Below, one piece after another: positions 10,014 through 59,969 of a DNA stretch of 64,000 nt. The notes under the pieces were generated by a model that saw only the letters and a program-made list of their open reading frames with translations, was not told the DNA's origin and searched no databases. A program made the translations under genes and the position numbers. The stretch comes from Planctomycetota bacterium (GTDB lineage Bacteria; Planctomycetota; B15-G4; JADJEK01). The stretch is taken from positions 21,287 to 85,286 of the forward strand of contig JBGAIQ010000005.1 of NCBI GenBank assembly GCA_044225365.1, read 5' to 3'. The stretch's first letter is position 1, and the number at the start of each line of letters is the position of its first letter.

Positions 10014-12227
10014 ATGCGATCCACGATCATGAAACGGGTTCCGAACCCGCGCGTCCTCGTCCTTTGTCTGCCGCTCGTGACGGGCTGCAATGGACCCGAA
10101 CGATCCGGCGTCGAGGAAGTCTTCAACTTCACGCCGCTCGCCTACTACGAAACGAGTACCTCTCCGCCCGGCTACTCCGTCGACGTGCTGTGGCCGCTCA
10201 TCAACGCGTATCGCTCGGGCGATGCGCGCGGCAGCCGGTTCTTCCCGATCTACTCCGAGGATTGCGTCGACGCGGACCACTCCGCGATGCGACTGTTCCT
10301 CCTCTACGGCAGATCGCAAGACGGCGCGACGCACAGCCATCAACTCTGGCCAATGTACTCGTACACCCAATCGGCGGAGGACAAGTGGAGCTCGATGGTC
10401 CTCTTGCTCGCGGGCTTCTCGCGGGACGGCAGCGAGCACAATCGTTTCTTCTTCCCGTTCTACTTCGATCGCTCGGCGAAGGATGAGAACTGGTTCACGC
10501 TCTGGCCGTTCTACGGCACATCGAGCCGGGAACTCGCGAGCGGCGCGCAACTACGCCACGATCACGTCGCCTGGCCGCTCTTCCGCTTCGAGAGCTCGAG
10601 CGACGACCAGACCTCGGGCCAGCATCTCCTCTCGCTGCACTTCCTCGCCGGCCTCTACGACGCGTACCGACAACCGATCGAGTCGCTGGATTCCGAGGGC
10701 CGATCGAAATCCGCGGGAAGTCGTTCGAGCAGCGTCATCGGCTGGATCCTGGGACCGGTATTCAGCCTCTTCCACGCCTACGACGATTCCGTCGAGCAGG
10801 TAAGCGGCTTCACGCTGCTCTCGCTCTTCAACAAGCGAGTCTCCCGCCATTTCGACATGGGCAGCGACAACGACTCGGATGAGAAGGTCGATCTCGCGCT
10901 CGTCTCGAGTCGCACGGAGATGCACGAGAACGGCGAGTATCACCACAGCCAGCTCTTCCCGATCTACAGCAACACCTCACAGCCGGGCGGCGCGACCGAG
11001 ACCTGGGTCATCACTCCGCTCTACCGACACGCCGCCGATCCGCAGTTGAACAAGAGCGAGCACGACGTGCTCTTCGGGCTCTGGCACTACGGCGTCGAGG
11101 GCGACGGCGCTACCCGCGCCACGAGCTGGCGCCTCCTGCCGCTCCTCTGGTTCACGACCCGCCCCGACTCCGAGACGTCGCTCGTCCTGCCGTTCTACTA
11201 CCACATCCAGGACAAGGACTCCGACTACCTCCACGTCATCCCGTTCTACGGGAAGAACACGGAGGCCGGCGGCAAGAAGACGACGACGTTCGTCCTCACC
11301 CCGCTCTACATCGGCACCCACGACGAACGCACCCGCCTCGAACAAACCGACGTCCTCTTCCCGCTCATCTCCTGGCAGCACTCGAACAACGGGTCACTGA
11401 GCCGATTCACGCCGCTGTGGTACTACGAAGAAGCCGGCGCCCGCACGCACTGGAACTCCTTGCTCCTCGTCGACCGCACGACGTCGGAGATCGAGAGCTC
11501 GACGCTCGTCTACCCGCTGTGGGAGGATCGCACGGTCCGCGGCGAAGGACGCCGCCGCTCCCTGTTTCCGATCTTCGACTTCGTCCGTCACCTGCAGGAC
11601 GACGCACCGAAGGGCGACGAGTTCGCGACGCTCTTCCCACTCGCGAGCTTCCGCACCGACGGCGAATCGAGCAACCGCTGGATCTTCCCGTTCTACTTCT
11701 GGAGCGACGACGCCGCGGGCCACAGCAACAAGATGATCTGGCCGTTCTTCGGCACGAAGCGCGACTCCGACCACGTGACGCGATCGGTGATCTGGCCCTT
11801 CTTCTTCTGGGGCAGCGATTCGACCGGTGATTGGTCCGAGACCGGAATCCTCTATCCACTGTTCGCCTCGTCGCACGATCGTCGCGACGCGACGACCCGC
11901 GATCACAGCCACCTCTTCCCCCTCTACTGGTCGACCTCGGGCGAGAACGAGACCGGACCGTGGAGCTTCGACTGGGTCCTGTGGCCGCTGTGGCAACACG
12001 AGCGCAAGGCGAACGGGGAGATCTGCGCGCACTCGCTGTTCAAACTCGGCGAATACGAACTCTCACCCGACGGCACGACGGAGGAGTTCTCGATCCTCCA
12101 CGCGGTCTACCGCTACCACCGCGAAGGCGACGACGTGCTGCGGAGCGTGCCGTTCTTGTTCCGTTACGAACGGGAGAAGGGCGAGAGCACGCTGTACCTG
12201 TTCCACTTCATTCCGATCGGGCTTTGA
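10014..12227 (+). CDS. Lipoprotein of unknown function built from about 25 short aromatic repeats ([LFIV][WF]P[LFI][YFW])
   Basis: 737 aa. The signal peptide plus lipobox is ...LVLCLPLVTGC. Examples of the repeat core are LWPLI, FFPIY, LWPMY, FPFYF, LWPFY, AWPLF, LFPIY, IPFYG, LFPLI, IWPFF and LWPLW, recurring about every 20-30 aa. Confidence 0.6.
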   Translation: MRSTIMKRVPNPRVLVLCLPLVTGCNGPERSGVEEVFNFTPLAYYETSTSPPGYSVDVLWPLINAYRSGDARGSRFFPIYSEDCVDADHSAMRLFLLYGRSQDGATHSHQLWPMYSYTQSAEDKWSSMVLLLAGFSRDGSEHNRFFFPFYFDRSAKDENWFTLWPFYGTSSRELASGAQLRHDHVAWPLFRFESSSDDQTSGQHLLSLHFLAGLYDAYRQPIESLDSEGRSKSAGSRSSSVIGWILGPVFSLFHAYDDSVEQVSGFTLLSLFNKRVSRHFDMGSDNDSDEKVDLALVSSRTEMHENGEYHHSQLFPIYSNTSQPGGATETWVITPLYRHAADPQLNKSEHDVLFGLWHYGVEGDGATRATSWRLLPLLWFTTRPDSETSLVLPFYYHIQDKDSDYLHVIPFYGKNTEAGGKKTTTFVLTPLYIGTHDERTRLEQTDVLFPLISWQHSNNGSLSRFTPLWYYEEAGARTHWNSLLLVDRTTSEIESSTLVYPLWEDRTVRGEGRRRSLFPIFDFVRHLQDDAPKGDEFATLFPLASFRTDGESSNRWIFPFYFWSDDAAGHSNKMIWPFFGTKRDSDHVTRSVIWPFFFWGSDSTGDWSETGILYPLFASSHDRRDATTRDHSHLFPLYWSTSGENETGPWSFDWVLWPLWQHERKANGEICAHSLFKLGEYELSPDGTTEEFSILHAVYRYHREGDDVLRSVPFLFRYEREKGESTLYLFHFIPIGL

Positions 12228-12250
12228 GCGAGGCGAACGCGGGAGAAGAG

Positions 12251-12512
12251 CGTACGTCGGTCTCGGGCGCGGTCTCGTACATCGGGCTCGTACATCGGTC
12301 TCGGGCGCGGTCTCGGTCTCGGGCTCGGTCTCGGTCTCGGTCTCGTACGTCGTACATCGGTCTCGGTCTCGGTCTCGTACGTCGGTCTCGGTCTCGTACG
12401 TCGTACATCGGTCTCGGTCTCGCACGTCGTGCTCGTACATCGGTCTCGGTCTCGTACGTCGGGCTCGGGCGCGGACGTCGAACGTGGTTCGACGTACATC
12501 GGACTTGGGCGC
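12251..12512. repeat. Hexanucleotide tandem array of about 260 bp (units GGTCTC, GGGCTC/GGGCGC, GTACGT, GTACAT), strictly 6-nt periodic
   Basis: Read directly: ...cgtacgtcggtctcgggcgcggtctcgtacatcgggctcgtacatcggtctcgg... The array fills the convergent gap between the lipoprotein stop (12227) and the VOC gene stop (12514). Confidence 0.8.
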
Positions 12513-12513
12513 G

Positions 12514-12900
12514 TCACTGGCCCGCTGGGGGTTGCCACAATTCGAGCTTGTTGCCGTCGGGATCGGTGACCCAGCCGAATTTGCCATACTCGGATTCTTC
12601 GACCTTGTCCGCGACGTCGCAACCTTCGGCGCGGAGTGCGGCCAAGACGGCGTGGAGATCCTCGACGCGGTAGTTGATCATGAAGCTCGCTTCACTCGGC
12701 GCGAAGTACTTCGTGTCGTGCGGGAACGGGCTCCACACCGTCGTCCCCGTTCCCGTCGGGTTCTCCGGCCCGGCCCACTTGAACGCGACGCCACCCCACG
12801 CCTCGACGTTCATTCCGAGGTGAACGCGGTACCACTCCCCGAGCGCCTTCGGATCCTTGGACTTGAAGAACACGCCACCGATCCCAACGACACGCTTCAT
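12514..12900 (-). CDS. VOC family protein (glyoxalase/bleomycin-resistance/dioxygenase fold)
   Basis: 128 aa with an ATG start. The N-terminus MKRVVGIGGVFFKSKDPKALGEWY and the C-terminal ...GWVTDPDGNKLELWQP are typical of small VOC proteins. Confidence 0.7.
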   Translation of the reverse strand: MKRVVGIGGVFFKSKDPKALGEWYRVHLGMNVEAWGGVAFKWAGPENPTGTGTTVWSPFPHDTKYFAPSEASFMINYRVEDLHAVLAALRAEGCDVADKVEESEYGKFGWVTDPDGNKLELWQPPAGQ

Positions 12901-12982
12901 CTCGAATTCCTACACGAAGTGAACCTGCGCTCGAATCCTACACGACCGCCACGTCCTCGACCGTCCCAGGCGAAGCGAAGAG

Positions 12983-13390
12983 TCAGCGATCGCTCGCAGT
13001 ACGCCTCAGCAACAAACGCGTGCGGGGTGTCGCCACTTCGTCGAAGTAGAACGCGAGCGCGCCTGGCAAACAGCACACGATGGACGCGAACGAGTGACGC
13101 TCGCATTCGTCGATCGCGTCTTCGAGCGGAAGGTCGCGACCATCCAGCAAGGGCGAATCGGACATGATGTGAACCTGGGCCGGTGCTCCCGCGCTTCGTA
13201 GCACGTCCAACGCTTCGTTGGACGATCTCGCGGGATGTACGAATCGAACATCCCAATCGACGAAATGGTTGAGAACGGACCTCGCGCGATCACGTCCCCT
13301 CGCATTCCCAAACAGTGCGATCAACCGTTCGCGCTTCTTCTTCTCGACGAAGGCTCGCAGCGTCGCTGCTTCGGCTGGATGAATGGCCAT
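12983..13390 (-). CDS. Hypothetical protein
   Basis: 135 aa with an ATG start. I recognise no motif. It is in the same orientation as the VOC gene and 83 nt upstream of it. Confidence 0.45.
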   Translation of the reverse strand: MAIHPAEAATLRAFVEKKKRERLIALFGNARGRDRARSVLNHFVDWDVRFVHPARSSNEALDVLRSAGAPAQVHIMSDSPLLDGRDLPLEDAIDECERHSFASIVCCLPGALAFYFDEVATPRTRLLLRRTASDR

Positions 13391-13399
13391 CTTCTCTCA

Positions 13400-13492
13400 C
13401 ACGTCCGACGTACGACTACGAGTCCCACGTACGAGACCGATCTAATAGACCGGGACTCACGTACGAAACCGAGTCCGAGTCCGACGTACGCC
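13400..13492. repeat. Degenerate inverted copy of the hexanucleotide array (units GAGACC, GAGTCC, ACGTAC, which are reverse complements of GGTCTC, GGACTC, GTACGT)
   Basis: Read directly: acgtccgacgtacgactacgagtcccacgtacgagaccgatct...gtacgaaaccgagtccgagtccgacgtacg. It lies immediately upstream of the hypothetical gene's start. Confidence 0.6.
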
Positions 13493-13506
13493 CCTCTCCC
13501 GTCCTG

Positions 13507-14934
13507 TCAGACCCCTCGGATCCACTCCGTCACCAAATCCATCACGCTCTCCTCCATGGTGGTCTCGATGACGGCGTATTCGCTCGGTGCCCCCGTCGTC
13601 GACTTTTGGAACAGGTGATTCAGATCCGGCAGTATCCTCGCAGTGGTGTGCGTGTTGCCGCCCTTCCTCAGAGCGGCTTCGATCGCGGGGATGTTCATGG
13701 TCGCGGGGACCTGAAGATCCTTCGCGCCGTTGAGTGCCAGGACGGGGCATTTCACTTGGACGAGGTATTCTTGCGGATCGATCGCGAAGAAAGCCTTGAA
13801 CCAAGGTGAGTTGATCTCGCGGGCGGTCTGCGCGGCGTCCTCGTAGATCCACTTCTCGCCGGGCGGGCTCTTCTCGAGGCCGCGCTTCAATAGTTCGTCG
13901 AGCTTCGCGCCGAGTTCGGGACCGACGGGAACGGAAATGGCGAGGTCGATCATGGCGGCGCTGAGCTTCGCTTCGATCTCCACCTGGTCCTTCGGCTTGC
14001 CGTTCGCGAGGGAGATGAGGCGACCCTGTTCGATCGAGATCTCGCGCCCGGACACGCCGGTGCCCGCGAGCAGGACGATGAATCCGACGTCCGCGCTCTT
14101 CGTCGCACAGATCGGCGCGATGAGACCACCCTCGCTGTGACCGATGAGGCCGATGCGCTTCGTGTCGATCTCGGGCCGCGACTTCAGGAACGCGACGCCC
14201 CCGAGTGCGTCGTCCGCGAAATCGAAGCTGGTCGAGGATTCGAATCGCCCCGTCGAGCCGCCGATCCCGCGATCGTCGGCGCGCAGCACGGCGATGCCGT
14301 GACGCGCGAGATGATCCGCGAGGACGAGGAAAGGTTTGTGCCCGAGCAGGCTCTCGTCGCGGTCCTGTTGACCCGAGCCCGTGATGAGGACGACCGCCGG
14401 GAAGGGCGGCTTCATGCCTTCGCCGTTCGGAATGAAGAGCGTGCCACCGAGGGAGATCGAGTCGTTCAGACTGTCGTAGTCGACGTCCTCGCTCTGATAC
14501 GGGAACGGCGGCTTCGGAGTCTGCGGGCGCGCGAGGTCGGCCAGTCGCTCCGTTCGCTTCAGCTCAAGAGGTACGGCGGCGCCACCCTGCTTGAACTCAC
14601 CCGCGATCTTCGATCCCGCACCGTCGAGCTGACCGGAATACTCGATGCCGAACTTGCGCACGACGAAGCGCACGCTCGCGGCGTCGCACGTCGTCTCGTC
14701 GACCGGAATCGCCTTCAGTCCCTGATCGATGCTGTCCATCGTCGACTGTAACGCACCGTTCGTCCCGCGCGTGACGAGGAAGCCGATGCGAAGCGTCATC
14801 GACTGTACCGTGATGCGCCCTTCCCAGGCTCCGACGATCTCCGCGCGTCGAAGGGCAAGGCCCGATGCATCCCGTAGCAGCACCGATGCGAACAGAGCGA
14901 CCAGAAGAGCGACGTGGGAGCGAACGGTATGCAT
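13507..14934 (-). CDS. Secreted alpha/beta hydrolase (serine hydrolase; S9 / X-Pro dipeptidyl-peptidase-like)
   Basis: Starts at an internal ATG of track ORF 13507..14979, giving the signal peptide MHTVRSHVALLVALFASVLL. The nucleophile elbow GHSEGG is present, together with the usual downstream Asp and His regions. Confidence 0.7.
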   Translation of the reverse strand: MHTVRSHVALLVALFASVLLRDASGLALRRAEIVGAWEGRITVQSMTLRIGFLVTRGTNGALQSTMDSIDQGLKAIPVDETTCDAASVRFVVRKFGIEYSGQLDGAGSKIAGEFKQGGAAVPLELKRTERLADLARPQTPKPPFPYQSEDVDYDSLNDSISLGGTLFIPNGEGMKPPFPAVVLITGSGQQDRDESLLGHKPFLVLADHLARHGIAVLRADDRGIGGSTGRFESSTSFDFADDALGGVAFLKSRPEIDTKRIGLIGHSEGGLIAPICATKSADVGFIVLLAGTGVSGREISIEQGRLISLANGKPKDQVEIEAKLSAAMIDLAISVPVGPELGAKLDELLKRGLEKSPPGEKWIYEDAAQTAREINSPWFKAFFAIDPQEYLVQVKCPVLALNGAKDLQVPATMNIPAIEAALRKGGNTHTTARILPDLNHLFQKSTTGAPSEYAVIETTMEESVMDLVTEWIRGV

Positions 14935-15088
14935 GGAGAGTTCCGCTTCGATTCGTCTTTCGTTCCCCGGGGTCGTCACCGCGCCGACTGCGCAGCCTCC
15001 CGAGTGCTGGGGGGAACGCCAGCATCCTTCTCGGAGTTCCCGGATTCAACCCCTCGCAACCGCACCCTCCATCCGTTGAAATGACCCC

Positions 15089-18000
15089 ATGGCGCCAGCG
15101 ATCCATACTGCGCATCCATTCTTCGACAGCCTGATGCGTCGGCCGGTTTCGGCCTTCATGTCGCTCTGCCTCATCTTCCTGCTCGGCTTCGTCGCCTATC
15201 GGCGCATTCCGCTCACGCTGATGCCGTCGGGACTCTCCGACCCGACGATGCAGATCGAGATTCCGTACTCGAACGCCTCGCCCGAGGAGGTCTACGAGCA
15301 CGTGACGAAACCGATCGAGGACGCGGTCCGCCAGCTCTCGGGAATCGAACACGTCGAGTCGACCTCCAGCGCCGGTCGCGGACGTGTGAGCGTCTCGTTC
15401 CACGGCGACGTCGACCTCGACGCCGCGTACGCCGACTTGAAGGATCGCCTCGAACGCGTCCGCGCCACGCTGCCCGAGGGCTCCGACAAGCCCGTGATCT
15501 TTCGCTGGAACAGCGACGTTGCACTCCCGATCTTCTGGATCGGCGTCCAATTCGAACCCTCGCTCGAGGATCCATACCACCTCGTCGAGGAGGTTCTGCA
15601 GAAGCGAATCGAATCCGTCGATGGCGTCGCGCAGGTCGGTCTCGAGGGTATGGTGCAGGACACCGTGCGGGTCTTCGTCGCGCCCGACAAGCTGCGAGCG
15701 CACGGCATCACGCTCTACGAAGTCGTCGACAAACTGCGCCGCGACAACTTCGTGTTGCCTTCGGGACACATCGACGACGCCGGCCGCCAGTTCCTCCTGC
15801 GGGTCGACACCACGTACTCCGATCTCGAGGAGGTCCGCAACTACCCGCTCAAGCCCGGTCTCTACGTGAAGGACGTCGCCGACGTCCGCTTCGCCCGGGC
15901 GTACCGCGACACGGTGAGCCGCGTCAATGGCAAGCGCGCGCTCACGATGACGATCAGCAAGGAGTCCGACAAGAACACCGTCGCCGTGTGTGCGGCGGTA
16001 CGCAGCATGCTCGACGAGCTGCGGCACGACGATCGACTCAAAGGCTTCGAGTACTCGATCTACTTCGACCAATCGAAGCTGATCGTCGGAGCGCTCGACG
16101 ACCTCAAGTCGTCGCTCCTGTTCGGAGCCTTCTTCTCCGTGCTCGTGCTCTTCGTCTTCGTGCGTCGCGTCGGCATCACCGCGCTCGTCTCGCTCGCGAT
16201 CCCGATCTCGCTGCTCTCCGCGGTCATCGGGCTCTACTTCACGGGCTTCACGCTCAACATCGTGTCGCTCGCCGGCATCACGCTCGCCACCGGCATGCTG
16301 GTCGACGATTCGATCGTGGTCACGGAGAACGTGTTGCGCCTGCGCGCCGAGGGCCGCAACCCGCTCCATGCCGCGGCGGTCGGCACGGGCCAGGTCGCGA
16401 TCGCGATCATCCTGTCGACCCTGACGTCGATCGTCGTCTTCGCGCCCCTCGTCTTCATGTCGGGCGGCAAGTCGACTCGCGCGCTGCTCGCCGAACTCGG
16501 CGCCCCCATCACCTACTCGCTTCTCGCTTCGCTCTTCGTCGCGCTCTTCCTCCTGCCCATCACGATCGTGATGTTCTCGCGCTTCGAGAAGAAGACCGAG
16601 AACGTGTTCGACCTGCCGACCGACACCCGATTCCATCGGGCGTACCGGCGCGTCCTGGCGCTCGCCGTCAAGAACCGCTTCGTCACCGCCGCCGCGATCC
16701 TCGCCATGCTCCAGCTCGGGGCCGTGGCGTTCAAGCACGTCGACATGAACTTCGAGGATCGCAAGGAGGGCGGCGGGCGCCTGCGCATCACGATCGATCT
16801 CCCGGATCGCTACACGATCGAAGAAGCCTCCGACACCTTCGCCGAGTACGAGAAGTTCCTCGTCGCGCGCCGCAAGGAGGACAAGGTCCGCGACGTGAGC
16901 TCGCGATTCACGCGCCAGGAAGGGCGACTGCTGCTCTGGTTCGAGGACGGCGCTCCGAAGGGCTGGGAGAAGACTCTGTCGAAGACGCTGGCCGAGGTCA
17001 TGCCGAAGGTCCCCGGAGTTCGACTCTCCTACGGCTTCGAACAGGGCGGCGAGCAGGGCAGCATGAGGATCGAGCTGCAAGGTCGCGACAGCGTCACGCT
17101 CGGCCGTCTGTCGCGAGACGTCATCCGCGAACTCGAAAAGCTCCCTGAACTCTCGGACGTGAAGACCGACACCGCCGATGGCCTCGACGAACTCCACGTG
17201 GCGTTCGACCGCGAGGAGACGCTGCGCTACGGGGTCACCCAGGAAGTGCTGCTCGGCCTCATCTCGTGGGGTATCGGCAGCCAGCAGCTCTCGCCGTTCA
17301 AGACGGCGACCCGTGAGATCCCGATGCTCGTCGAGTACGAAGATCCCGACGTCGGAGATCTCTCGTACCTGAAATCGCTCGAGGTGCCCGTCGGCGCGGG
17401 TGGCAACGTCACGCTGGGATCCCTCGGTCATTTCGAGATCGAGAAGAACTACGGCTCGATCCGCCGCCGCGACGGGATCGTGAATCTGCCGATCAGCGCC
17501 CAGAGCTACGACTCGAACGGGTATCGCGTGAATCGACGAGTCGCCGAAGTGCTCGACGCGTTCCCGTTTCCCGAGGGCTACACCTGGACGAATCGAGGAA
17601 AGCAGCAGGATTTCGAAGAGAGCAAGTCGGAGATCTCGCTCGCGTTCCTCGTGGGCGTCGTGTTCGTGTTCCTGCTCATGGGAATGCTGTTCGAGTCGTT
17701 CATCCTGCCCTTCGCCGTGATGCTGACGATTCCGCTCGCCGTCGTCGGCGGCGCCTTCGCGCTCGTACTCACCAAGACTCCGCTCGACGTCACGGGCATG
17801 CTCGCATTCGTGCTGCTCGCCGGAATCGTCGCGAAGAACGGGATCGTGCTCGTCGATCGAATCCAGCAGCTTCGGCACGCAGGAATCGCGCGATTCGATG
17901 CCGTGCTCGACGGCTGCTGCGAGCGACTGCGCCCTGTCATCATGACCGCGCTCACGACGATCTTCGGCCTGCTTCCGATGGCGATGCCCGAGCTGTTCGC

Positions 18001-57800: not shown

Positions 57801-59969
57801 TTGGAATTGCGTCCCGTCGGGCGGGAGCTGCTCTGCCTGCGAGAAAGAGGTTTCCGCCTCGACGAGGCGTCCGGCCATCGCCAGCGCCCTCGCCCGTAGC
57901 GACTCGCGCACGTACGCCCGTTCGGGTCGCATGGGCTCACCGTCGAGCATCGAAAGAGCACGAAGCGCGAGCGTCGGGTTCACCTCGACGAGCGCGGCGC
58001 GCGCGCTCGCGAGAGCGTAGTGCCGTGGAGCCTTCCTGCCCGCAAACGCCAGCGACTGCGCGACCGACGCAAGCGTCGTGGCGTCACGACTCCGTCGCAA
58101 GAGAGCGCGCGCGATCGCCCGCGCGGCCTGCGCATCGTTCGGGCTCGCCACCTTGGAGGCGAGCGTCACGGCGATCGCCGAGTCGAGCACTCCCGTCTCG
58201 TGAGGCGGCTTGAAACCGCGCAACACGAGTAGACGCGTCGCGCGGGCCAACATCGCCAGGACGGCCGGCCCGAAGAGCCCGGTTGCCTCGACGAGCACCG
58301 GGATCGGCAGGGAGACCCGAACCTGGGCGAGGAGGACGAAGACGGATCGCGACTCGCTCGGCAATTCGTCGAGATAGGCCGTGAAGGAGTTGCGACCTCG
58401 CGAGTCGACGGCGGAATCCTCGATCACGGCGGCGTGCTCGGCGTCGTCGAGTCGTGCCAGATCCGCGACGATGCCGCTCTCCCGATCGAGCAATCCGCCG
58501 CGCCGCGCCAATTCGCGCACGATCGACCGCATGCGCCGTGGCGAACCGTCGGAGCGCCGCACGAGCTCCGCCGCGAGCGCCTCCGGAGCGAGGAGGCGCG
58601 GGATCGTCACCTCGAGGATCGCGAGGACGTCCGACTCGGCGATCGGCTGGATCATGAATTCATCGAACTCGACCACGAAGTCGACGGGCAATGCGAGACG
58701 CGCCGCGTCGACGTCGCCACCGAGTGCGATACCTCCCGCGACCTCGCCGCGAGCGAGCGCGGCCGCGAAGACCGCGAGCGCTTCGATCGCCGATCGACTC
58801 GCGTTCTCGACATCGTCGAGGATCGCGATCACTCCGGGCATCTTCTCGCGCGCGTTCGCGATCTCGGCGATCGCTCGAAGCGGCGAGTCGACTTCGGCGA
58901 GATCGAGCGTGAGGATCCCGCGAGCCCTCGCGAGTTCGCGCAGCCGCAACAAGTGCGTCGTTCGGCCGCTGCCAAGGCGCCCCCCGATGACCAGCGTGCG
59001 AGGACTCTCGCTCGAATCCTCGATCCCGGACGCGACGCCGCCGAGCCAACGCGCGAGGCGCTCCTCCGAAGTGCGGGCGAGGACGACTCGCCAATTCTCC
59101 TTCGTGCTCGTTGCATCGACGTCGCCCGTCCCGAGCAAGCGGCGGTGCACGGCTCGCGCGTCGAGGGTGCGGAGCGCTGGATCCGGCGCCAGGAGCCGCA
59201 AGAGGAGCTCCTCGAGGAAGGGTGCGGAACAGCGTTCGGCGACGCGTCGCGCCACGTCCGCGGGAACTCCCGCGAGGATCGCGCGGACCAAAGAAGTCGC
59301 GTCGGATCCGTCGGTCGACGGAGGGACGAAGAAGAGCGGTTCGCCGAGCACGACCTCGACCAGCAGGCTGCCGAACGCGTAGAGATCCGATGCGGCAGTC
59401 GGCGCCGCGGAGAGCAATCGTTCGGGGGCGAGGTATTGCAATGTGCCGTGACGCGCTCGCTCGGGATCGGCGAAGGCGGGGTCGATCAGCACGCCTCGTC
59501 CGCTCGGCGTGACGATCACGTTTTCCGGCTTGAGATCCCCGTGCGCGAGTTCGAGCGAGTGCATCGCGAAGAGGCCGAGAAGGACGTCGCCGAGCACCGC
59601 GAAAGCCTTCTCACGAGAGAGCGCAGGCAGTGCGGCTCGCAGGTCGCGGCCTTCGACGTAATCGCAGACGACGTACGAAACCCCCGTCGCGGGGTCGGTC
59701 TCGATCGCGAGCATCGTCGCGAGATTCTCGTGGCGGAAGCCGAGGAACGAGACGAGAGCCTCGACGTTCGCGAAGTCGGCACCGAGGCCAGCGGAATCGC
59801 TGCGATCACGGAGCAGTGCGCGATCGAAGCGTGGCGGCCGATCCGCTCGGCGCGGCAAGGGTCGCAGCACTCGTCGCGCGTTGCCGCTCGCCGTGTCCCG
59901 CACGAGCCATGGCGTTCTGGGCGCGACGACGGAGGCGAGCGCCCGCTCGACGCGGTAGCGTCCGAGCAA
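54852..59969 (-). CDS. Giant multidomain regulator: degenerate Ser/Thr kinase, P-loop NTPase (STAND/PknK-like), TPR, GAF, sigma-54 activator AAA+, Fis HTH. The start is uncertain: the track ORF extends to 60068 and overlaps fur; a TTG at 59969 is proposed.
   Basis: N-terminal kinase fold (LGRYRV..., HGDLKPENV, YLAPE). P-loop LVIGGRLGSGRTTHLL. About 600 aa of TPR-like repeats. GAF-like stretch ...GFVVTRFESSFRFEAARNL...GAIYVDD... Sigma-54 module GEAGTGKE, GSFTGA and LFLDEIAD, with an Arg finger. C-terminal HTH ...AAERLGITRRWLQTLISKYGI. Confidence 0.8.
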   Translation of the reverse strand: MLGRYRVERALASVVAPRTPWLVRDTASGNARRVLRPLPRRADRPPRFDRALLRDRSDSAGLGADFANVEALVSFLGFRHENLATMLAIETDPATGVSYVVCDYVEGRDLRAALPALSREKAFAVLGDVLLGLFAMHSLELAHGDLKPENVIVTPSGRGVLIDPAFADPERARHGTLQYLAPERLLSAAPTAASDLYAFGSLLVEVVLGEPLFFVPPSTDGSDATSLVRAILAGVPADVARRVAERCSAPFLEELLLRLLAPDPALRTLDARAVHRRLLGTGDVDATSTKENWRVVLARTSEERLARWLGGVASGIEDSSESPRTLVIGGRLGSGRTTHLLRLRELARARGILTLDLAEVDSPLRAIAEIANAREKMPGVIAILDDVENASRSAIEALAVFAAALARGEVAGGIALGGDVDAARLALPVDFVVEFDEFMIQPIAESDVLAILEVTIPRLLAPEALAAELVRRSDGSPRRMRSIVRELARRGGLLDRESGIVADLARLDDAEHAAVIEDSAVDSRGRNSFTAYLDELPSESRSVFVLLAQVRVSLPIPVLVEATGLFGPAVLAMLARATRLLVLRGFKPPHETGVLDSAIAVTLASKVASPNDAQAARAIARALLRRSRDATTLASVAQSLAFAGRKAPRHYALASARAALVEVNPTLALRALSMLDGEPMRPERAYVRESLRARALAMAGRLVEAETSFSQAEQLPPDGTQFQLAVEHAQLLERMGRATDAVDRLDRALLRARGNDVFRLRAARAWAANAAGKTAEARNEVNALWSLRQGIDDLSARLEIAAVAGPLADRAGDVRRTHEAFVEARRLSRRLGRLARAAHFDSTLAVIDLEAGRAALAERRLRRAVNLLERSSDRRLLPDVLTRLGLARLESGDARRAFQSLQRATILFSRAGNRRGLGWALAGEGAARLFLGDPEAAVKCLEQSLEHRKFVNAHPGAALSAAELIRARATLGDIDGTRAAVRESLQLSAGPERASARLSVLIAIAEAARDRGEIATAWGVARRAVLLADRAGGQGERATAESLVAEQQLFRSDPIGALRRARLARRLARAAGRRKALAEATGIRAAALVLLRRDAARCALLSALETASDDATKAAVLIAFARAVRLDLANGSFEFARDGRDAARAAQRHALACGHRLRIAIARELVAALDAALEGTAVERDLLRENRQLRQVLEASRWINEADSVADVLTRILDTALDLLGASRGFVVTRFESSFRFEAARNLRQQDIEDPAMQLSRSIVERTLASGETIVTSEARTDERFKEYQSISRLDLLSVLCAPLKARGEVIGAIYVDDPERIDRFDDSARNVTQALAEQAAIVLDRARLRGEIEVLNTRLLADVKARTRELETARDDLDRVRRELEAKGVASPLVTQDPRLLGILDLVERVADSDASVLVLGEAGTGKELIARSLHDRSYRRRKRFIAVNCASLPETLVEAELFGYRKGSFTGATRDHEGLVVAADQGTLFLDEIADMPLAMQAKLLRVLQDGEVWPLGSNKPQRVNFRLVAATNRPLVEWVAAGRFREDLYWRLRVIPIDVPPLRDRRGDVPLLVAHFSSEIARRSGDKPRGFTDAALAHLSAQPFPGNVRELEAVVRALVLTSPHDPIDAQDLPPDYRRTPLPAVVAPVRESALPGETSLKDAVANYEKELVVAALRASEGNRGKAAERLGITRRWLQTLISKYGIE

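Follow-up and report, generated by a model that had tools for sequence, protein, structure and literature searches.

We analysed a 64,000-nt stretch of DNA from a Planctomycetota bacterium (contig JBGAIQ010000005.1, positions 21,287 to 85,286 of the forward strand; the whole stretch is referred to here as the window), in which two small genes, encoding a VOC/glyoxalase-fold protein and an uncharacterised protein of 135 amino acids (p135), lie between two arrays of 6-7-nt repeats. A preliminary description of this locus had proposed that the arrays are inverted relative to each other and that they bracket a mobile cassette or an inversion module. As it had stated, exactly two co-oriented small genes are located between the arrays, at 12514-12900 and 12983-13390, both on the minus strand. 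The features of this module, with positions counted from the first letter of the window, are the following:

12240-12513, plus strand: left arm, expanded, consisting of the outer terminus CGGGAGAAGAG, about 39 units of 6-7 nt and then the inner end.
12240-12260, plus strand: left outer terminus, CGGGAGAAGAGCGTACGTCGG, 21 nt, beginning 12 nt past the lipoprotein stop codon.
12460-12513, no strand assigned: hairpin at the inner end of the left arm, with the core ACGTCGAAC-GTG-GTTCGACGT at 12475-12495, adjoining the VOC stop codon.
12514-12900, minus strand: VOC/glyoxalase-fold protein gene, 128 amino acids, matching Pfam Glyoxalase_6 (2.9e-7) and Glyoxalase (6.7e-6), both above the curated cut-offs.
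12901-12982, minus strand: spacer between p135 and VOC, 82 nt, containing a direct repeat of 16/17 nt.
12983-13390, minus strand: p135 gene, 135 amino acids, of an uncharacterised family.
13400-13501, minus strand: right arm, unexpanded and degenerate, 102 nt, with the outer terminus CGGGAGAGGGG.
13481-13501, minus strand: right outer terminus, CGGGAGAGGGGCGTACGTCGG, 21 nt.

The spacer leading from the upstream lipoprotein gene to the VOC gene was almost entirely repetitive. Tandem Repeats Finder resolved positions 12251-12480 into nested tandem periods of 6, 13, 32 and 77 (scores 124-239), and splitting the left arm at its CG anchors yielded approximately 39 units, including 17 CGGTCT, 6 CGTACAT, 5 CGTACGT, 3 CGGGCT and 3 CGGGCG. 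With up to one mismatch allowed, the window contained 15 occurrences of GGTCTCGGTCTC where 1.3 were expected, and the left array accounted for 10 of them. In addition, a 27-nt sequence was present twice as an exact copy (12345-12371 and 12396-12422). Together with the higher-order periods of 32 and 77 nt, these exact copies indicate that the left arm has been tandemly expanded. The left array filled 274 of the 286 nt of its spacer, beginning 12 nt past the lipoprotein stop and ending 0 nt from the VOC stop, while the right array filled 102 of 116 nt; the spacers, previously described as entirely occupied by repeats, are thus nearly so.

The right arm lies between the stop of an alpha/beta hydrolase gene (13507) and the p135 start (13390), with its outer end 5 nt from the former and its inner end 9 nt from the p135 start codon. 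It contained the units of the left array as reverse complements, in a more degenerate form and with an AT-rich interruption (GATCTAATAGACC) at 13439-13451. Both arms were composed of CG-anchored 6-7-nt units (CGGTCT, CGGGCT, CGTACGT, CGTACAT), and both carried the same non-array outer terminus, CGGGAGARGRG, and the same inner end, CGGACGTG. Local alignment of the left arm with the reverse complement of the right arm gave a score of 64, whereas 500 dinucleotide shuffles of the same comparison reached 24.9 +/- 5.1 with a maximum of 48. The direct orientation scored 17, and the best score of the left arm against 1224 other window segments was 35. Arm homology in the inverted orientation far exceeds chance, and the inverted relationship of the two arrays, including the alignment of the right-hand segment to the reverse complement of the left array, was therefore borne out.

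Without gaps, the arms paired over 41 nt at 85% (outer ends), 41 nt at 80% (inner ends, 12446-12486 complementary to 13400-13440), 53 nt at 79% and 62 nt at 73%. When gaps were allowed, the right arm aligned collinearly with 12240-12486 over 92 of its 102 nt at 91%, an identity that is inflated by the repetitive units. The homology stopped at 12486 within the left arm, the remaining positions (12487-12513) being formed by additional degenerate units and the 3' half of the hairpin, and the left arm carried approximately 155 nt of extra internal units relative to the right arm. Since the ends match, the two sequences are collinear and the left arm holds the extra repeats, the simplest description is that of an arm of about 100 nt, the left copy of which has been tandem-duplicated.

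The shared 21-nt outer terminus had two matches in the 64 kb, one per outer end, against 0.01 expected; 11 of its 21 nt are non-array sequence, a common element of the outer ends that goes beyond the preliminary description. The 16-nt core CGTACRTCGGNCTCGG was present in nine copies in the left arm and in two to four copies in the right arm, and the rest of the window lacked it. The left and right arrays form the arms of a single imperfect inverted repeat, approximately 100 nt long, which bounds a module of 1,262 bp (12240-13501) with two genes and no transposase. A k-mer-density scan detected no third array in the window. Its single k-mer-dense weak site, at 59645-59698, was inside a kinase gene and was rejected as a chance match. 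Because no comparable array was found in the remaining 64-kb window or in 105 kb of related loci, the presence of two arrays around one gene pair is unlikely to be a coincidence.

Comparison with related loci placed the module within a larger segment, which involves the following additional features:

10014-12227, plus strand: lipoprotein gene, 737 amino acids, with no Pfam domain.
12228 to approximately 14973, no strand assigned: lineage-specific insertion of about 2.75 kb, absent between the lipoprotein gene and the RND pump gene in related loci.
13507-14934, minus strand: alpha/beta hydrolase gene, matching Pfam Hydrolase_4, Peptidase_S9 and others, located in the inserted block and outside the inverted repeat.
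14974-15088, plus strand: retained ancestral spacer and RND leader, sharing sequence with L127 and L128.

The lipoprotein proved distinctive enough for orthologous loci to be located through it. The related loci L127, L128 and L129 presented the order GT4 glycosyltransferase, lipoprotein, RND pump, solute-binding protein and permease, and L130/L131 kept the first three genes of this cluster (GT4, lipoprotein and RND). The window carries the same five genes in the same order, with tblastn identities to its proteins of 55-63% for GT4, 35-54% for the lipoprotein, 53-71% for RND, 57-65% for the binding protein and 67-75% for the permease. These relatives are distant, and the databases hold no close one: the best non-self database matches of the lipoprotein and of the hydrolase were both 55% identical, and the lipoproteins of the closest relatives were 52-55% identical. 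In all four relatives (L127, L128, L129 and L130/L131), the lipoprotein stop and the RND start were separated by 57-113 bp, and tblastn detected neither VOC, p135 nor the hydrolase in the fetched stretches, which also contained no tandem array. In the window, the corresponding interval holds both arms together with the VOC, p135 and hydrolase genes, all three of which are antisense to the cluster. Remnants of the original spacer could still be recognised upstream of the pump gene. Specifically, the 13-mer CGTCACCGCGCCG at 14974-14986 was also found 1 nt past the lipoprotein stop in L127, and the 20 nt TCCGTTGAAATGACCCCATG across the pump start (15072-15091) were identical in L128 (5225-5247). 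The start of this retained sequence at 14974 sets the right boundary of the insertion at approximately 14973.

Since the relatives keep the lipoprotein and pump genes 57-113 bp apart and the ancestral spacer survives at 14974-15088, the block from 12228 to approximately 14973 is, judged by synteny, an insertion directly after the lipoprotein stop codon, and the five-gene cluster is, on the same comparison, interrupted by 2.75 kb of accessory DNA in antisense orientation. Neither inverted nor direct repeats were found at the ends of this block. The DNA between the lipoprotein and pump genes is absent from four syntenic relatives, and the comparison therefore favours the insertion that had been proposed earlier, though a larger one than then envisaged. 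No insertion placed specifically between the genes for the lipoprotein and the hydrolase can be demonstrated, because the segment missing from the relatives comprises about 2.75 kb and includes the hydrolase. Two observations concern the cluster itself. Orthologues of the lipoprotein were found only in assemblies labelled Planctomycetota, always between the GT4 glycosyltransferase and the RND pump, and the conserved cluster is uncharacterised. The sequence GTGAAATGA was present upstream of the RND start in L127 and L129, so that the leader has been conserved though other intergenic DNA diverged; this leader may be a translational or regulatory signal.

Composition and distribution distinguished p135 from its neighbours. 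The GC content at third codon positions (GC3) was 0.68 in p135, within the lowest 0.3% of host windows of 135 codons (mean 0.846, standard deviation 0.043), and the gene is compositionally foreign. VOC (0.82) and the hydrolase (0.81) were host-like. We found 12 homologues of p135 at 52-64% identity with 34 invariant columns, and an exhaustive profile search collected 1449 cluster representatives at E<=1e-3 and 690 at E<=1e-10. These homologues and representatives, together with a confident AlphaFold2 model (predicted local distance difference test score 87), indicate that p135 is a real gene. Its invariant residues include H42, H74, C106-C107 and D117-E118. Foldseek gave no fold match in the PDB, there was no match in Pfam, NCBIfam or PADLOC, and PHROG returned nothing meaningful. 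In other genomes, the homologues occupied unrelated neighbourhoods, never beside a VOC gene and without hexamer arrays, and homologues of approximately 30% identity were found on Priestia and Bacillus plasmids. The p135 homologues showed a GC3 of 0.86 at locus L001 and 0.73 at locus L004, compared with 0.92-0.97 and 0.87-0.93, respectively, in larger neighbouring genes, which suggests that p135 homologues reside in small accessory islands. At loci L003 and L004, the homologues were accompanied by other small genes of low GC3. No flanking repeats were found at L001, L003 or L004.

The closest homologue of p135 (64% identity, locus L133) was located in a 1.16-kb segment bounded by direct repeats. 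These consisted of the exact 16-mer GGAACGATAAGGGGAC at 464-479 and 1622-1637 and, approximately 45-60 nt beyond it, of ACATTTTACGCCCGC at 525-546 and 1668-1689. Positions 668-804, before the p135 homologue gene, were occupied by about six tandem 21-nt units (GCAAGTCATTTGCTCCCCCGG).

The 82-nt spacer between p135 and VOC contained the direct repeat CTCGAAT(T)CCTACACGA at 12901-12917 and 12930-12945, the first copy adjoining the VOC start codon. No more copies were found in the window beyond chance at up to three mismatches, and the repeat may be an operator or a small duplication. The hydrolase corresponded to the NCBI protein P0013 (475 amino acids, 100% identical); its best non-self relative, at 55% identity, was in an unrelated context.

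Given this anatomy, we tentatively favour the possibility that the module is the relic of a transposase-less, non-autonomous insertion cassette bounded by inverted repeats. The reading is favoured because the outer and inner ends of the arms match, the arrays are confined to the flanks of one gene pair, p135 is foreign and nomadic, and the module lies in acquired DNA. The location of the closest p135 homologue in a repeat-flanked segment next to a tandem array was also counted in its support. The arms would once have served as termini for transposition or recombination, and the module would have entered as a unit, as a cassette within the acquired 2.75-kb block between two genes of the conserved cluster. 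After insertion, slippage or unequal exchange between units would have lengthened the left arm from approximately 100 to approximately 275 nt, while the right arm would have decayed. Any present-day role, such as pairing between the 5' and 3' untranslated regions of a two-gene transcript, would be secondary. What was directly observed is the arm anatomy, the agreement of the arms at both their outer and their inner ends, the tandem expansion of the left arm and the lack of the whole block in the relatives.

As in miniature inverted-repeat transposable elements (MITEs) and cassettes, terminal inverted repeats were present at both ends of the module (the outer 41 nt being 85% complementary), and it contained passenger genes only, with no transposase inside. 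Several results weigh against the cassette. No target-site duplication was found at 12240/13501, where no direct repeat of 2 nt or longer abuts the module (the left flank ends in GGCGAACG and the right flank begins with TCCTGTCA), and the site that is empty in the relatives corresponds to the 2.75-kb block and not to the arm boundaries, its right boundary lying off the right arm. The 64-kb window contained no second terminus or unit-motif copy, no cognate transposase is known for the arms, and their ungapped likeness is just 73-85%. The two cargo genes differ in composition, VOC having a native look. Among the wider searches, a metagenome scan with a 22-mer gave two matches, both in ordinary coding sequence; viral contigs yielded nothing for the array pattern, the terminus or the p135 profile; and blastn of the whole module against plasmids returned nothing. 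A pattern scan of a genome collection with CGTACRTCGGNCTCGGNCTCG was too permissive, giving at least 118 single chance matches, with none in an array among the matches listed. Neither VOC nor p135 matched a transposase or recombinase in Pfam, NCBIfam, PADLOC or PHROGs, and none was detected in the hydrolase, the lipoprotein or ten neighbouring open reading frames scanned between 93 and 20935.

With no target duplication, no recombinase or transposase, no further copy in the window and no array-like match among those listed in the searches, we infer mobility and inversion rather than observe them. Of the mobile MITE- or foldback-like cassette suggested at the outset, the shared inverted termini were confirmed, while a target duplication, a transposase and a window copy were all missing. 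Similarly, the further arrays or copies that it might have left elsewhere were found neither in the window nor, as array-like matches, in the metagenome, viral and plasmid searches.

The repeat may instead have arisen locally. In that case, an array-containing spacer of about 100 nt would have been duplicated in inverted orientation by the illegitimate recombination through which the genes were acquired or rearranged, and one copy would have been expanded by replication slippage, leaving a neutral scar without function. The lack of a target-site duplication, of a transposase and of another copy anywhere searched is consistent with this origin, as are the difference between the arms and the boundaries of the block missing from the relatives, the lack of a strand-specific G.U bias among the arm mismatches, and the finding that single arms are no more stably folded than shuffled sequence. 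On the other side, the outer and the inner ends of the arms both correspond, which is tidy for an accidental rearrangement, and bacteria seldom carry short inverted duplications separated by 1 kb except in mobile elements. We regard a local, non-mobile origin as unlikely.

The arms could also have separate origins: each would be a copy of a small repeat dispersed in intergenic DNA, of the short tandemly repeated repetitive (STRR), repetitive extragenic palindromic (REP) or MITE kind, that lodged just past a stop codon, and the two would look inverted only because the lipoprotein and hydrolase genes converge. Indeed, the arms begin 12 nt and 5 nt past stop codons and have the same orientation relative to the gene, although this geometry is equally expected for any bounded element between convergent genes. 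Tandem arrays of approximately 7-nt units are known from cyanobacteria, where the STRR sequences of heterocystous species occupy intergenic spacers, often just downstream of genes, and may affect transcript stability (PMC2670836). The module shares with them tandem units of about 6-7 nt in intergenic DNA. STRR sequences, however, are formed of near-perfect units at many dispersed loci, whereas the module presents just two arrays within 64 kb, which are heterogeneous (two unit classes), adjacent and inverted, and share unique termini. The locus of the closest p135 homologue, with a different small repeat after two successive genes, agrees with the dispersed-repeat explanation. Against it, the remaining intergenic DNA of the 64-kb window yielded no third copy, nor did 105 kb of related loci, and no copy was among the listed matches of the public pattern scans. 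Two independent insertions of this kind seem rather improbable to us.

A function at the RNA level, which would be compatible with the other readings, was evaluated from the folding of the predicted transcripts. Under this explanation, the arms of a hydrolase-p135-VOC transcript would pair into a long imperfect duplex acting as an RNase III processing or stabilising stem, or would link the 5' and 3' untranslated regions of p135-VOC. Hydrolase, p135 and VOC share one orientation and are separated by short spacers, the arms occupy the untranslated spacers exactly, and the minus-strand RNA from 13510 to 12230 paired the arms in both minimum-free-energy and centroid folds, with a duplex of approximately -140 kcal/mol. 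Such pairing is, however, trivial for any inverted repeat. The plus-strand duplex was equally stable (-136 kcal/mol) and the mismatches showed no minus-strand preference for G.U, so that the pairing is a consequence of the repeat and not evidence of selection. Moreover, no Rfam family matched even at E<=1, and the p135 homologues have no such flanks. In bacterial rRNA operons, the processing stems cleaved by RNase III are formed by complementary sequences approximately 1-3 kb apart that bracket a functional unit in a longer transcript. Those stems are conserved across taxa and experimentally cleaved, whereas the arms described here show no conservation and no strand-specific compensation. A cis-acting RNA device built from the two arms is accordingly a long way from probable.

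When single arms were folded, the z scores relative to shuffled sequences were +1.9, +1.1 and 0.0, the exception being the hairpin at 12460-12513. This hairpin reached -27.4 kcal/mol (z -3.3) as plus-strand RNA and -15.8 kcal/mol (z -1.5) as minus-strand RNA. It has no U-tract, and consensus scans detected neither a sigma-70-type promoter nor a U-tract terminator in the arms. Located where the lipoprotein and VOC transcripts converge, the hairpin may act as a bidirectional terminator.

An invertible segment, in which recombination of the Hin/Gin type or homologous exchange between the inverted repeats would flip the approximately 1-kb two-gene segment that they flank, is highly improbable, since neither the segment nor the scanned neighbours encode a serine or tyrosine recombinase, p135 has no resolvase-like fold match, the arms are poor recombination substrates because they are just 73-85% identical and of unequal length, and no switch is apparent because either orientation would still be read through from a flanking gene.

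Other candidate systems were rejected. The arrays are not clustered regularly interspaced short palindromic repeats (CRISPR), as their 6-7-nt units follow one another directly without unique spacers, while CRISPR repeats measure 23-50 nt. Type III toxin-antitoxin systems of the ToxIN kind carry tandem repeats of approximately 34-45 nt upstream of the gene for a ToxN-type endoribonuclease, compared with the degenerate 6-7-nt units found here; p135 had no PADLOC or Pfam match, and there were no ToxIN-like arrays upstream of its homologues. An integron attC cassette was discarded because inspection of the spacer and the arms, with no dedicated attC model used, revealed no RYYYAAC/GTTRRRY cores. 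The 82-nt spacer and the right arm folded no better than shuffles, the spacer having no significant RNA fold. For a restriction-site decoy, the counts of GGTCTC and CGTACG elsewhere in the window were close to Markov expectation, and that of GTAC was modestly lower (115 observed, 151 expected), which gives no clear signal of restriction avoidance. Finally, the idea that the 16-nt core is an operator was dropped, the core being absent elsewhere in the window.

Returning to the insertion cassette, cassettes with bracketing inverted repeats and no transposase are a documented kind, an example being mic-qnrD, with 1,519 bp and 24-bp repeats (PMC3913671). The module resembles the mobile insertion cassettes (MIC231 of Bacillus cereus, mic-qnrD of Proteeae) and MITE-bracketed composites in having imperfect inverted repeats around accessory passenger genes with no transposase inside, and its 1,262 bp are similar to the size of mic-qnrD. 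In contrast, the repeats of mobile insertion cassettes are short, their ends are related to a known insertion sequence and a target-site duplication is usually present, while the module has arms of approximately 100-275 nt made of 6-7-nt tandem units, no duplication and no known cognate element. Long, internally repetitive terminal repeats that expand are characteristic of eukaryotic foldback-type elements, whose arms can seed satellite-like arrays (PMC3573991, PMC4079207). As in these elements, the terminal inverted repeats of the module consist of tandem subrepeats and the arms are unequal through expansion; foldback-type elements differ in being eukaryotic and multi-copy, in their P-element-type or other transposases and in their much longer arms. 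Because the defining target duplication is absent and the search for copies in the source genome covered the 64-kb window, the module cannot be filed among mobile insertion cassettes, foldback elements or STRR sequences. By analogy, it could conceivably be a bacterial counterpart of foldback-type elements, that is, a transposase-less cassette with long termini of 6-7-nt units, in which the units containing the CGTACRTCGGNCTCGG core would be subterminal sites for a transposase or recombinase acting in trans and the arms would expand and contract like microsatellites. We consider this extension of the cassette very doubtful.

Irrespective of the origin of the arms, p135 represents a sizeable family without a Pfam model or a solved-structure match. 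If the arms are functional termini, the module would extend transposase-less cassettes to long arms of tandem units, hitherto found mainly in eukaryotic foldback elements, and it would provide a starting point for studying the movement of small accessory genes in Planctomycetota-like genomes. If they are not, the locus would constitute a clean insertion scar that shows how a short repeat arm can balloon by slippage.

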